A DNA stretch of 64,000 nucleotides from Halorussus marinus. GTDB taxonomy: Archaea > Halobacteriota > Halobacteria > Halobacteriales > Haladaptataceae. The stretch is taken from positions 62,001-126,000 of the forward strand of contig NZ_SBIV01000002.1 of NCBI RefSeq assembly GCF_004765795.1. Reading direction: 5' to 3'. The notes under the pieces were generated by a model. That model did not search any database, was not told where the DNA came from, and saw only the letters and a program-made list of their open reading frames with translations. Both the position numbers and the translations under genes were made by a program. Shown here in pieces: positions 44,454-48,970 of this stretch. Each line of letters opens with the position of its first letter. The stretch's first letter is position 1.

Positions 44454-45596
44454 CTACTCGGCCAGTTCCTCGTCGAGGGTCGTCCCGGTGACGTACGACG
44501 AGAGCTGGACGCCGACCAGACTCACCACGACGCCGGCGACGACGAACACCGCGAGTCGGGTGCCCGGCGGGACCTGCATGCTCTCGATCACGAGGTTGCC
44601 GACTTCGATCCGGGGGACGACGATGGGCGCGACCAGCCCCGCGGGCTGGAGGAAGTACGCCGAGAACCCCCGGACGACCAGCCCGACCGCGAGCACGCCG
44701 AACGGGAGGTTGAGGTAGGCGTTTCGGACCCGGTCGTTACGGATGGCCTCGTCGAGCAGTCGGCCGGTCGAGGCCGCCATCGCGGCGCTCGCGAGCCACG
44801 GCACGCTCGCGAACGCGAACGCCATCGCGGGCATCAACACCCCCTCGTTCGAGATCGTCATATCCGAGACCCGGAGCGCGCCGGCGAACACCCCGACCAG
44901 CGACAGCCCCGCGGCGACGACGTAGGTGACGATCGAGACCCGCCCGGAGTAAAGGGCGTCCCGGACCTCCGCGGGGAGGTCTGCCACGTAGTCGTCGACG
45001 CCGAGCCCCTTGTAGAGGACGAAAAGCCCCATCACGGCGGTGATAGTCGAGACCGCGATCGCCTGCCCGAACCCCATCAGCAGGATGGGAAACGCGATCA
45101 GCGCGACCCCGACCGGGACCAGCACGGTCTGGCGGAGCTCCTCGTCGGCGAGAAACTGCTTGAGCAGGTAGTAGGTGGACTCGATGTCCCTGGCCTGCCG
45201 GACGACCACCCGGTCGACCGCGTCGACCTGCACCCGGCTCTCGATGATCGGGACCAGCCGCTCGTCTTGGGCGCTGTCGATGACGACGATCGCCGAGTCG
45301 GGGTCGTACTCCGCGATGAGGTCGTCGGTCTGGGCCGCGACCGCGCGGTCGCGACCCACCATGGTGTCGGCCGCCCCCGAGATGACCGCGACGGTGACCT
45401 CCTCGTCGCCGTCCCTGAGATCGCGGGCGACCCGGAGCGATTCGAGCAAGCAGTTGACGCCGGCGTCCTCGGGGTCCGCGATCCCGACCTCGGTGACCAG
45501 CGACCGGACCGCCTCCCATCCGACGACCGGGGTTTCCAGCCCGGTCTTGGCACCGATGTCGTCGTCGCGGTCGACACAGACCACCAGCGTGCTCAT
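44454..45596 (-). CDS. DUF373 family membrane protein
   Basis: LVVCVDRDDDIG, DPEDAGVN and VVVRQARDIESTYY; TM C-terminal half. Confidence 0.9.
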   Translation of the reverse strand: MSTLVVCVDRDDDIGAKTGLETPVVGWEAVRSLVTEVGIADPEDAGVNCLLESLRVARDLRDGDEEVTVAVISGAADTMVGRDRAVAAQTDDLIAEYDPDSAIVVIDSAQDERLVPIIESRVQVDAVDRVVVRQARDIESTYYLLKQFLADEELRQTVLVPVGVALIAFPILLMGFGQAIAVSTITAVMGLFVLYKGLGVDDYVADLPAEVRDALYSGRVSIVTYVVAAGLSLVGVFAGALRVSDMTISNEGVLMPAMAFAFASVPWLASAAMAASTGRLLDEAIRNDRVRNAYLNLPFGVLAVGLVVRGFSAYFLQPAGLVAPIVVPRIEVGNLVIESMQVPPGTRLAVFVVAGVVVSLVGVQLSSYVTGTTLDEELAE

Positions 45597-45667
45597 GTCG
45601 TTCGACTGGGCCCAGACGCGCGAGGGATAAAAAGGCTCGCGTCGGGGCGGCCGACTCCGCGATCAGT

Positions 45668-45696
45668 CGGCGTCGGCGGGATCGACGACCTCGCCG
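45668..45696. repeat. Left 29-bp direct repeat (att-like; displaced copy of the nth 3' end)
   Basis: CGGCGTCGGCGGGATCGACGACCTCGCCG, identical to 48151-48179. With 45663-45667 it reads GEVVDPADAD* on the minus strand. Confidence 0.93.
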
Positions 45697-45706
45697 AGTC
45701 GACCGA

Positions 45707-46573
45707 TCAGAGAGTCGTCTGATTCCGAACCGCCGAGAGCGCTTCGTCGTCTTTGTATCGTGAGTACGGATTTAGCTCGGGATCGAGATACACGCAGTCG
45801 AACCCCCAGAGCGCGTCGGCCGAGAACGTCGCCGTCTTGCCCGAGTCGCCCTCGGTATCGCTCTTGTTGAACTGGTCGGGGTCCATCTCGCCCATTCGGA
45901 CTTCCCAGATCCACGCGGTGTCTTTCCGCGTTCCTCGCTCGTAGTTTCGGTCTCGATCCGCCAGAACGTACCGAAGCGTGACGTACAGGCCCGGTTTCGG
46001 GAGGTGTCCTTTCGGCATGTTGTTCTCCATCGCGACTTTGATCTCGATCCCCGGAACGCCACTCCGAGCGCCGGTGCTGATCAGATCGGGGAAATTCCCC
46101 GCGTTCACTTCGTAGAGCCCCTCAGACGCCTCGGCGACACCGGAGGCGAAAAACTCCCCGATCACGGTCGAGAGCGCAGAGTACTCGTCGAACTGTTCGG
46201 CGAGCGGTTCGACACCCCGCCGTTCGAACGCGAAGTCGATCGTATCCAGGTTCTCGTACGCTCTCTCGATCCCCATCAGAATCGCCGAGTTGTCGAAGGG
46301 AACGTCGTCGTAGATATCTGCGTCCTCGATCACGTACTCTTCTTTCGGTGTTCTGAACGATTCGGGGTTCACCAGTTCGGTGATGGTGACGTCTAATGCG
46401 TCTGCGATCCGCATCACGATCGAAATACCGGGCTCTCGTTCGCCCCGTTCGATCTTCCCGAGCGTGGTTCGGTGTATGTCAGCGGTCTCGGCGATCTCTT
46501 CGAGGGAGTTCCCGTGTAGCTCGCGGAGTTCCTTGATTCGCCGACCGAGATCCGATCTGAACTCGTCGCTCAT
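45707..46573 (-). CDS. XRE/C-protein HTH fused to a putative PD-(D/E)XK restriction endonuclease
   Basis: N-terminal LGRRIKELRE...SLEEIAETADIHRTTLGKIERGEREPGISIVMRIADALDV. The C-terminal domain has an E...FPDL...GIEIK catalytic-like motif. Divergent from a C5 MTase. Confidence 0.8.
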   Translation of the reverse strand: MSDEFRSDLGRRIKELRELHGNSLEEIAETADIHRTTLGKIERGEREPGISIVMRIADALDVTITELVNPESFRTPKEEYVIEDADIYDDVPFDNSAILMGIERAYENLDTIDFAFERRGVEPLAEQFDEYSALSTVIGEFFASGVAEASEGLYEVNAGNFPDLISTGARSGVPGIEIKVAMENNMPKGHLPKPGLYVTLRYVLADRDRNYERGTRKDTAWIWEVRMGEMDPDQFNKSDTEGDSGKTATFSADALWGFDCVYLDPELNPYSRYKDDEALSAVRNQTTL

Positions 46574-46610
46574 GCGTTGGGACCAGACACCGTCGCTCGT
46601 TAAACATAAT

Positions 46611-46626
46611 TGAGACAATTGTCTCA
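46611..46626. promoter_or_regulatory. Perfect 16-bp palindrome TGAGACAATTGTCTCA, candidate operator (C-box analogue)
   Basis: Read directly from the sequence. It lies just upstream of a minus-strand TTTAA (46604-46600), which is 27-31 bp before the ATG at 46573. Confidence 0.7.
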
Positions 46627-46793
46627 TCGTTGGCGATCGATTAACTCTGCGCCGATCTGACAACGGTTCGATCGAATTCGAGGCTCCTACGAAGGGTATT
46701 AAGGCGGTGCGAAGATAGCTACGGATAATGCATCGCCCCAGTCAGACCGAGACGGCCGTAACTGGCGACGAAGCGATCGTCTCACCGTAATCT

Positions 46794-48053
46794 ATGGTAG
46801 GTGTCATCGACCTGTTCTGTGGCACGGGCGGCTTCACGTACGGCTTCGAGACCCACCCCTCCGACCAGTTCGAAGTCCTGTTGGGACTCGATAAAAAGGA
46901 CGTCGCCGCCGAGACGTTCGAACGAAACCATCCGGACGCGGAGGTCGTGAACGCGGACATTCGAGAGTGGCCCCCCGAGAAAACGGCCCGACAGACGGAC
47001 GTCACTCCCGACGACGTCGACGTGATCGTGGGCGGTCCGCCCTGTCAAGGCTTCTCTTCGATTCGTCCGGACCGCGGCGACGACGTTCTGGACGAACGGA
47101 ACGGGCTGTACTCCGACTTCATAGAGTACGTCGCCTACTACGAGCCCGACTTCTTCGTGATGGAGAACGTGGTCGGACTGGCCACCCACGAAGACGGCGA
47201 GACGATCGGCCAGATTTTGGACGATACGCGACACATCGGGTACACCGCCGACTGGCGGATCCTGAACGCCGCCAATTTCGGCCTGCCACAGCGCCGAGAG
47301 CGACTGATTATGATCGGTGCGGCCGACGAGCGGGAGATCGAATTCCCGGATCCGACACACGAGGCGGACGGTCGAACGATCGGGTACCGGGACAAGTCGA
47401 AGGTCGTGACGACACAGCCCACGCTGGACAGTTTCCGGGACGCCAAAGCCCTCCGAGAGGCGAGAACGATAGTCGACGCCATCGGCGATCTCCCGGAACT
47501 GGAGGCCGGAGAACGCGCAGTCGAGTACACACAGCCGCCACAAAACCGCTATCAGGCGTCGCTACGCGACGGATCGGCGGAGCTCACGCTACACGAGGCG
47601 ACCGATCACGGGGAGAAGATGCTGACGATAATCAGACACAGCGGCCCGAACAAGCAGACGACCATCGAGAATCTGGAGCGGTCGCCGGAAGTGGACGACG
47701 TCGACGACTACATCACTACGGGGTACAGTTCGAGCTACTCCCGCCTCGACCCGGACCTCCCCTCGGTGACGATGACGGTCAACTTCATCCATCCCGCCTC
47801 CAACAAGTGCATCCATCCGACCCAAGACAGAGCGCTCACGCCGCGGGAGGGTGCTCGGATACAGAGTTTCCCCGACAGCTTCGAGTTCGTCGGAAACCGG
47901 AGCGACGTCGTAGAGCAGATAGGAAACGCCGTCCCGCCACTACTCGGGCGCGTGCTGGCAGAACACGTCGTCGGGATGTACGACGAGTCGTATCGGGCTG
48001 ATTACGCCGCGTGTGTCATCGATGACGGACCCGAGCGCACGGCCGAAATCTAA
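46794..48053 (+). CDS. DNA (cytosine-5)-methyltransferase
   Basis: Motif I DLFCGTGG, IV GGPPCQGFS, VI MENV, VIII PQRRER, IX/X RALTPREGARIQSFP...QIGNAVPP. Confidence 0.97.
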   Translation: MVGVIDLFCGTGGFTYGFETHPSDQFEVLLGLDKKDVAAETFERNHPDAEVVNADIREWPPEKTARQTDVTPDDVDVIVGGPPCQGFSSIRPDRGDDVLDERNGLYSDFIEYVAYYEPDFFVMENVVGLATHEDGETIGQILDDTRHIGYTADWRILNAANFGLPQRRERLIMIGAADEREIEFPDPTHEADGRTIGYRDKSKVVTTQPTLDSFRDAKALREARTIVDAIGDLPELEAGERAVEYTQPPQNRYQASLRDGSAELTLHEATDHGEKMLTIIRHSGPNKQTTIENLERSPEVDDVDDYITTGYSSSYSRLDPDLPSVTMTVNFIHPASNKCIHPTQDRALTPREGARIQSFPDSFEFVGNRSDVVEQIGNAVPPLLGRVLAEHVVGMYDESYRADYAACVIDDGPERTAEI

Positions 48054-48136
48054 GCGACCGCGTTCTCCAGAGGCCCGCCACTCCGCCCGGTAGCAGTGCT
48101 GTGGCCGCCTGAGCCGGAAGCGGATCTCGAACGGCG

Positions 48137-48970
48137 CTACTCGTTTGTGACGGCGTCGGCGGGATCGACGACCTCGCCGGTCGCGGGTTCGACGCCCACC
48201 CGATCGCAGAGGTCGGACAGCGGACACGCCTCGGGACCGTCGAGACACGCCGGTTTGCGGGCGGTACAGTGCTCGCGGCCGAACTGAATCGTCGCGGTGT
48301 GGCCGAAGCCGCACTTCTCGGCGGGCACCTCGCGTTCTAGGACCGCCCGGACGGTCTCGTGATCGGCGTCGGGCGCCGCGACCCCGAGCCGCCGGTAGAT
48401 GCGATGGACGTGGGTGTCGACGGGGAACACGCCCGACTGCCCGCCCGCGAACAGCAACACGCAGTCGGCGGTCTTCGGTCCGACGCCGTTCAGATCGAGG
48501 AGCGCCGACCGGACCTCGCCGGGATCGCCCTCCCGGACGAACTCGTCGAAGGCGGCCGCGCTCCCGTGGTCGTCGAGGACGCGGTCGGCGACGGTCGTGA
48601 TGACGTCGGTCTTCTGGTTGTAGAGGCCCGCCGGTCGGATAGTGTCGGCGAGTTCGTCGGGATCGGCGCCCGCGAGCGCGACCGCGAGGTCGGTGTCGTC
48701 GGACCCGTCCGCGCCCCCGGTGGCGTACCGCTCCATCAGCGCGTCGTGGGCCGGCTGGCTCGCCTTGTCGCTGGTGTTTTGACTCAGGATCGTCCGGACC
48801 AGACACTCGAAGGCCGGCCGACCGCCGTAGGTCTTCGTCCAGTACAACCGGCCGAGTTCGTCGACGACCGCCTCGGCGCGGGTGTCGGGGTCGCCGTCCC
48901 GGAAGCTCGCGAACGAGCTCCCCGCGGGGTCGCCGCCGCTGATGTTCTCGGCGGGTTCGGGATCGTCCAT
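48137..48970 (-). CDS. nth: Endonuclease III family (HhH-GPD) DNA glycosylase with 4Fe-4S cluster
   Basis: TILSQNTSD, GVGPKTADC, FPVDTHVHR and C-TARKPA-C...CPLSDLC. Probable start MDDPEP at 48970. Confidence 0.92.
   Translation of the reverse strand: MDDPEPAENISGGDPAGSSFASFRDGDPDTRAEAVVDELGRLYWTKTYGGRPAFECLVRTILSQNTSDKASQPAHDALMERYATGGADGSDDTDLAVALAGADPDELADTIRPAGLYNQKTDVITTVADRVLDDHGSAAAFDEFVREGDPGEVRSALLDLNGVGPKTADCVLLFAGGQSGVFPVDTHVHRIYRRLGVAAPDADHETVRAVLEREVPAEKCGFGHTATIQFGREHCTARKPACLDGPEACPLSDLCDRVGVEPATGEVVDPADAVTNE
48151..48179. repeat. Right 29-bp direct repeat, inside the nth 3' end
   Basis: Identical to 45668-45696; encodes GEVVDPADA of the current Nth C-terminus. Confidence 0.93.

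Follow-up and report, generated by a model that had tools for sequence, protein, structure and literature searches.

In Halorussus marinus, a haloarchaeon of the family Haladaptataceae, a two-gene islet lies at the 3' end of an nth-like DNA-repair gene, between the copies of an exact 29-bp direct repeat. The DNA analysed, hereafter the window, is a stretch of 64,000 nucleotides (contig NZ_SBIV01000002.1, positions 62,001 to 126,000). Only two credible genes stand between the repeats, in divergent orientation: a predicted controller-endonuclease fusion with a helix-turn-helix (HTH), and a C5 cytosine DNA methyltransferase (MTase). We propose that a type II restriction-modification (R-M) module was acquired horizontally and now remains as a stranded remnant of mobile DNA, a reading to which we assign a probability of about 50%. 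The repeat itself is probably a scar, not a working pair of attachment (att) sites. The locus is composed as follows, GC3 denoting the guanine-plus-cytosine (GC) content of third codon positions:

45663..45696, minus strand: native 3' terminus of the nth-like gene (GEVVDPADAD*), displaced and orphaned; DUF373 starts 66 bp downstream of it
45668..45696: left repeat copy, exact 29 bp
45707..46573, minus strand: fusion protein of 288 amino acids, XRE HTH plus PD-(D/E)XK domain, its stop 10 bp from the left repeat
46611..46626: predicted operator of the fusion protein, a perfect 16-bp palindrome (consensus GAGAC-N4-GTCTC) just upstream of the fusion gene
46770..46784: putative degenerate second operator half, read from the sequence, just upstream of the MTase start
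46794..48053, plus strand: C5 cytosine DNA MTase of 419 amino acids (PF00145, E 1e-65)
48054..48136: spacer of 83 bp between the converging MTase and nth stops, with no homologue found among the fetched loci or in its own genome
48137..48150, minus strand: insert-supplied tail, giving VTNE* to the resident nth-like gene
48151..48179: right repeat copy, within the last codons of the nth-like gene
48137..48970, minus strand: nth-like HhH-GPD glycosylase of 277 amino acids with a 4Fe-4S motif, host-like in GC3 to its end and free of in-frame insertion
44454..45596, minus strand: DUF373 gene, the conserved downstream neighbour, given for context

The two repeat copies (45668-45696 and 48151-48179) are identical, and no third match was found in the 3.76-Mb genome with up to 4 mismatches allowed. 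The nth-like gene, which holds the right copy, ends GEVVDPADAVTNE; the left copy reads GEVVDPADAD and runs into its own TGA at 45663-45665. Exact repeats are not rare per se, as 128 segments of at least 25 bp recur in this genome at a spacing of 0.3-100 kb, many of them in paralogue-like runs: the 29-mer therefore matters through its position. The islet has a GC content of 0.603 versus 0.669 genome-wide, and the GC3 of its genes is 0.75 and 0.79 versus 0.90-0.96 in four neighbours, a mild shift that places them at the 15th and 17th GC3/codon percentile among 1519 crudely called open reading frames. Both repeat copies lie on one 3233-bp contig of run X1, which differs by 12 substitutions and 1 gap, so the islet is not an assembly artefact; the stretch is covered by contigs of this run and is lacking from runs X2 and X3. 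In the coding part of the cassette, five of the six differences to run X1 are synonymous, a small sample. A first-pass annotation, made from the letters alone, had already located the repeat at these coordinates in the nth end, read the left copy as an orphan end with its own stop and counted two genes, an HTH-nuclease and a C5 MTase; all of this stands. The AT-rich codon usage that it reported holds against the neighbouring genes and is weak at the scale of the genome.

We call the glycosylase nth-like because it scores 98 bits against TIGR01083 (NCBIfam nth), below the cut-off of 211.7 bits. DPADAD* is the commonest nth ending in congeners (8/19) and VTNE* occurs in none of the 19; the orphan copy is thus the displaced native end, and VTNE* came with the insert. 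Homologous 29-mers of congeners are only 18-26/29 identical, which makes both copies in the window this host's own allele. The earlier proposal that the insert replaced the last codons of the gene is therefore borne out. That the gene was kept intact is also true, but it came cheaply, since the tail after DP(A/S) is hypervariable across nth loci. Congeners carry one homologous copy of the repeat, with other DNA in the nth-DUF373 interval: none of the 18 in which this interval could be measured has the empty site predicted by the first-pass annotation, nth abutting DUF373, and 597-2970 bp lie there instead. In many congeners a PHP-like gene separates nth from DUF373; here it stands elsewhere (G000:C6:207163-207832), which implies an earlier rearrangement of the interval. 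Other cargo at the same site, a further suggestion of that annotation, was not seen with this repeat in 19 congeners or at 80 further nth loci.

The first 72 residues of the fusion protein match Pfam HTH_3 and have the XRE helix-turn-helix fold of controller (C) proteins, their best structural matches being C.AhdI (Z 14.2) and C.BclI (Z 13.7). With the full-length model, Foldseek gave HTH matches only, among the matches listed. Folded alone, the C-terminal domain yields a predicted model with a pLDDT of 90.7, for which a structure search places NaeI first (Z 9.7, root-mean-square deviation 3.8, 152 aligned). The top 11 structural matches are all restriction endonucleases, with only NaeI above Z 8, and residues D163, E177 and K179 are invariant across 111 aligned sequences. 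As modelled, the domain is a PD-(D/E)XK restriction-endonuclease-like fold with conserved catalytic residues. It has no Pfam match, apart from weak RE_ScaI hits in 2/76 family members; kinship with ScaI (Atlas cluster RE_ScaI on 21% of members, score 0.92; best E 0.015 in those 2/76) is kept as a lead only. The family counts 756 proteins, the HTH fusion being predominant among the 120 matches listed. The endonuclease domain is found in none of the 34 other genomes of the host's family and in 2/400 genomes of its class, and this near-absence from relatives marks the cassette as foreign. The observations that the first-pass annotation had set against its own proposal, namely a 29-mer common in the genome, both repeat copies in relatives without the cassette, or vertical conservation of the two genes at this position, are thus not what the genomes hold.

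In the MTase, the motifs FxGxG, PC, ENV and GNAV are intact in translation, TIGR00675 scores over its cut-off and PADLOC assigns MTase_II (E 1e-102). The 16-bp palindrome, overlooked in the first-pass annotation, is single-copy in this genome and conserved at 4/4 homologous loci examined, including a bacterial plasmid: three haloarchaeal homologues of the cassette have two copies each, and the plasmid homologue has one. The putative second half in the window agrees in position with the second copy of those three. Moreover, the divergent R and M pair is kept together in L051, L072, L073 and the bacterial plasmid NZ_MN657034.1. We infer from these sequences a type II R-M system in which expression of both genes would be controlled by the endonuclease. 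The MTase would methylate a cytosine within a short site, and the fusion protein would cut unmethylated copies through its PD-(D/E)XK domain; its HTH, binding the palindromic operator between the divergent genes, would time its own expression and that of the MTase. Defence and post-segregational killing would retain such a module, R-M addiction being the presumed retaining force. No target site was assigned. Among 6-bp palindromes, CACGTG shows the strongest depletion in the genome (0.11 of expected), and CTCGAG (0.26) and ATGCAT (0.32) are strongly under-represented as well, but CACGTG (0.23) and CTCGAG are depleted in congeners too, and 17 palindromes are missing from all five cassettes.

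Across haloarchaea, nth is a recurrent target of integrase elements, at three crossover points (residues ~214, ~181 and ~116) other than the 29-mer. Its end was matched in 335 genomes, 10 of which gave two matches; after dropping 4 that had only weak matches elsewhere, 6 genomes carry a second partial nth copy 0.75-4.7 kb downstream. The nth gene of G109 is occupied by a 4.8-kb element of low GC content that encodes a small regulator and a PF00589 integrase and has a 14-bp core near residue 214. At this locus (L120, G109:C3:335000-350000) the reading frame runs through the att arm and on into a re-encoded, AT-rich terminus, and the native end is displaced. The in-frame arm appears in the alignment as an insert of ~35-47 residues with a conserved NGG-Y motif (L120, L121, L124, L125, L031), and homologous inserts are present in G393, G077, G415 and the congener G006, with no integrase in the stretch examined. 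G393 retains the right junction and a broken regulator, without an integrase; G006, G077 and G415 keep the in-frame arm, with a displaced end that is shortened or decayed. Finally, G383 and G370 are without the arm; near-exact duplications, matching over 42/43 bp in G370, enclose a cargo devoid of integrase that G383 has in common with G077, and G370 with G006.

Low-GC inserts also split nth near residue ~181 or ~116 (L127 and L278-L282, in G159, G402, G196, G253, G302 and G349). An integrase of the same family is present in 3/5 of these loci when extended (G196 and G253 at ~181, G302 at ~116), and for the G302 element both junctions are seen. The idea of a protein-coding repair gene as attachment site, put forward in the first-pass annotation, thus holds for nth in general and at crossover points that differ from the one proposed. 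Side observations at the split loci are that G349 has a second nth-like gene, 37% identical, beside the junction, and that these loci are candidates for gene integrity controlled by excision. Close members of the integrase family occur in 35/401 genomes, and in the 30 loci inspected most adjoin a protein gene. Elements made of a regulator and a tyrosine integrase, 3-7 kb long and bearing inverted-repeat arms on cores of 12-15 bp, stand next to many protein genes (L136-L165, L266-L277); among their targets are what we take, from matches or motifs, to be a menB-like gene end, a flavin oxidoreductase-like gene and a diphthamide synthase-like gene.

Homologues of the cassette lead to a second protein gene, infB. 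A search with a single protein gave no match in genome_contigs and only an HTH-level match in metagenome_contigs; the alignment-based search returned 2 full loci and 1 HTH-only match. The four haloarchaeal cassettes now known to us (that of the window, L051, L072 and L073) sit at four unrelated loci. L073, with 75% protein identity, lies within an islet of 4.9 kb that has no integrase and occupies the 3' end of infB, flanked by repeats of 18 bp (17/18). The corresponding empty site, with one repeat copy, is present in 8/40 genomes of genus g25. Two further g25 integrase-less islets at infB carry different cargo, and their repeat starts at the same base as that of L073; in G432, a 19.5-kb element at infB has a regulator, a frameshifted integrase of the family and a similar core. 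In this genus, inserts recur at the 3' end of infB (L258, L261, L262, L073), three of which give the gene a TGA stop codon after the core. As for the other two cassettes, L051 adjoins the 5' end of a tRNA-Thr that in congeners stands next to DUF7114, insert-free, and the neighbour of L072 is a candidate intron-containing tRNA, read by eye; in neither case were flanking repeats longer than 13 bp found. A further insert (G464:C2:49340-53137) is present at the tRNA-Thr site of genus g8; its end sequences recur in the G029 islet, and it carries a second copy of 41 bp of the tRNA.

The first-pass annotation had identified the 29-mer as attL and attR, the left and right attachment sites of the islet, and this is not supported. 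Twelve integrase loci were extended, with a clear core in 4; together with G109 and G432, these made 6 elements, each of which has a core of 12-15 bp and arms in inverted repeat (shuffle fraction 0.017 or less). No such arms were found in the window (shuffle fraction 0.57) or in four other integrase-less islets (range over the five 0.37-0.86), and the repeat of 29 bp is longer than the cores. At the 80 further nth loci, which are the best-scoring matches and hence the most native-like ends, no repeat scoring above 16 was present within the 10 kb scanned downstream; six score 15-16 in host-like surroundings, and we regard these as fortuitous. An apparent excision joint in run X1 (45685-48153) was rejected: it skips 2467 nucleotides where precise excision would skip 2483, has 20 letters on its short side and was ascribed to another organism's contig. 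Contigs of these runs drop rare variants, so the lack of an excision joint is not informative on absence. The nth end was also searched in viral_contigs, with no match.

We now propose how the islet may have come to its place. The module would have arrived as cargo of protein-gene-targeting mobile DNA, equipped with a small regulator and a tyrosine integrase, that entered the nth-like gene; the integrase, the att arms and other cargo would then have been lost by deletion. The repeat would be an overlap of the kind seen in G370, what the last ten codons of the displaced end have in common with a resident gene that is native as far as DPADA. In polyploid haloarchaea, gene conversion between chromosome copies would render the two repeats identical. 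This origin is supported by the use of both nth and infB by regulator-plus-integrase elements; the presence of the cassette at four unrelated loci and the mostly synonymous differences to run X1 were also counted in its favour. So was the series of erosion that we read in the loci at nth, from G393 through G006, G077 and G415 to G383 and G370. Several observations speak against a remnant. The series is drawn from different genera, and its order is ours and not that of an observed lineage. Besides lacking arms, the islet has no integrase or regulator remnant, and the nth-side 97 bp (spacer plus tail) are host-like, with a GC content of 0.68, where nth elements have AT-rich ends; these 97 bp match nothing fetched. 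No element with a crossover at these last nth codons was found among the 80 further loci, the resident gene shows nothing of an element-borne copy beyond five codons, and the congener comparison, the only one made for it, has no empty site. The first-pass annotation had left the choice between a satellite and a remnant, the latter now being the better supported, and had not considered a long target duplication.

Such a duplication is a possible, if less probable, origin: without any site-specific recombinase, R-M DNA would have been joined in one step at a break, by homology on one side and illegitimately on the other, with 29 bp from the end of the host gene being duplicated in the process. 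Insertions of this kind were described by Furuta, Abe and Kobayashi in 2010 (PMC2853133), who, in the passages cited here, report R-M genes between unique direct repeats, some overlapping a gene's 3' end. The window resembles them in having R and M alone, a small insert (under their 20 kb), unique direct repeats and no mobility gene or other mobile element, and the fit extends to both 29-mer copies being the host allele, to the lack of arms and to an endonuclease stop only 10 bp from the repeat. It departs from them in the length of the duplication, 29 bp against an operational threshold of >30 bp; in those passages, no archaeal case passed the repeat screen. In addition, its target gene is independently an integrase target, and the repeat of the infB cassette starts at the same base as those of two islets with different cargo, which argues for site-specific entry there. 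The infB copy is thus explained less well by long duplication, although the anatomy of the window fits it equally well.

If the 29-bp repeats were attL and attR after all, the 2.5-kb unit would be a live satellite, moved in trans by a tyrosine recombinase encoded elsewhere. The perfect repeat is in line with this, as are the extreme 3' ends of protein genes used by the integrase family (menB-like gene, infB), the precise boundary shared by three integrase-less islets at infB and the 14 PF00589 matches in this genome, 12 of them over the cut-off. We nevertheless judge it quite unlikely: arms are missing from the window and four other integrase-less islets versus 6/6 integrase elements, no other cargo accompanies this repeat at the site in 19 congeners or 80 further loci, and no member of the integrase family was found in the genome, a draft of 37 contigs (best match 31% over 172 amino acids). 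A repeat due to chance, assembly or an ancestral arrangement might be suspected from the 128 exact segments, but the 29-mer is unique to 4 mismatches, falls on a gene end as well as on the two borders of foreign DNA and is spanned by the X1 contig; with the endonuclease domain not found in 34 family genomes, this becomes highly improbable. A wider hypothesis concerns the whole class of protein-gene tyrosine-integrase elements that enter nth, infB, menB-like and other genes: integrase-less islets such as this R-M module might be their minimal, still mobilisable passengers, hopping from one gene end to another whenever a helper integrase is at hand, an idea we regard as rather doubtful. In nth, this hypothesis takes in the att arm translated as an in-frame insert with a re-encoded end, or a split repair gene that excision could rebuild.

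Repeat-flanked R-M modules, cis-mobilizable elements (CIMEs), controller-restriction endonuclease (C-REase) fusions and archaeal att sites in protein genes are all already in print, and the islet is an archaeal variant of these known kinds, with an unnamed endonuclease family and a predicted operator. The statements that follow refer to the cited passages of each source. With CIMEs (PMC5704250) it shares integrase-less cargo at a target gene end, direct repeats and the loss of integration genes; a CIME keeps attL and attR, whereas here the repeat is present but arms are unrecognisable. It also differs from the regulator-plus-integrase elements, having neither an integrase with a small regulator at its end nor a 12-15-bp core with arms. 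C-REase fusions such as CR.NsoJS138I (Liang and Blumenthal 2013, PMC3850674) likewise have the controller HTH N-terminal to the endonuclease, with a candidate operator upstream, and in the window both domains are encoded in one frame. Those fusions are bacterial PvuII orthologues; ours is archaeal, nearest to NaeI in fold and paired with a C5 MTase. The GAGAC-N4-GTCTC motif is not printed in the main text of a control-protein survey (PMC2632904), and the R-M systems of pP62BP1 (PMC3346939), considered as a match, have a different layout. Patchy, horizontally transferred R-M genes have been described in Halobacteria (PMC6471742); those passages name no insertion mechanism or site.

Protein genes, not tRNA genes, as targets of archaeal tyrosine integrases are reviewed in PMC8371274 (section 19), with an HMG-CoA reductase gene, a metal efflux gene and an AsnC regulator as cases in which recombination is untested. 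Neither nth, infB nor the in-frame arm layout is among those examples, and the search listings covered gave no account of nth or infB as haloarchaeal att genes, nor of the in-frame arm. The cores and arms reported here are concrete att sequences for haloarchaeal integrases aimed at protein genes, a field in which, according to that review, recombination is untested. The islet is an archaeal example of a repeat-flanked R-M module that combines a controller-endonuclease fusion with a predicted operator. The decay intermediates at one DNA-repair gene indicate a route to integrase-free islets whose exact repeats are not att sites.

Elsewhere in this genome, three direct repeats of 49, 27 and 28 bp have a PF00589 gene at or near one end and delimit probable integrated elements (G000:C3:370318-375830, C1:503611-551600 and C6:209300-246758, respectively). 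Lastly, a 32-bp exact direct repeat stands outside the window at G000:C2:41668 and 49129 (contig coordinates), its copies 7461 bp apart.

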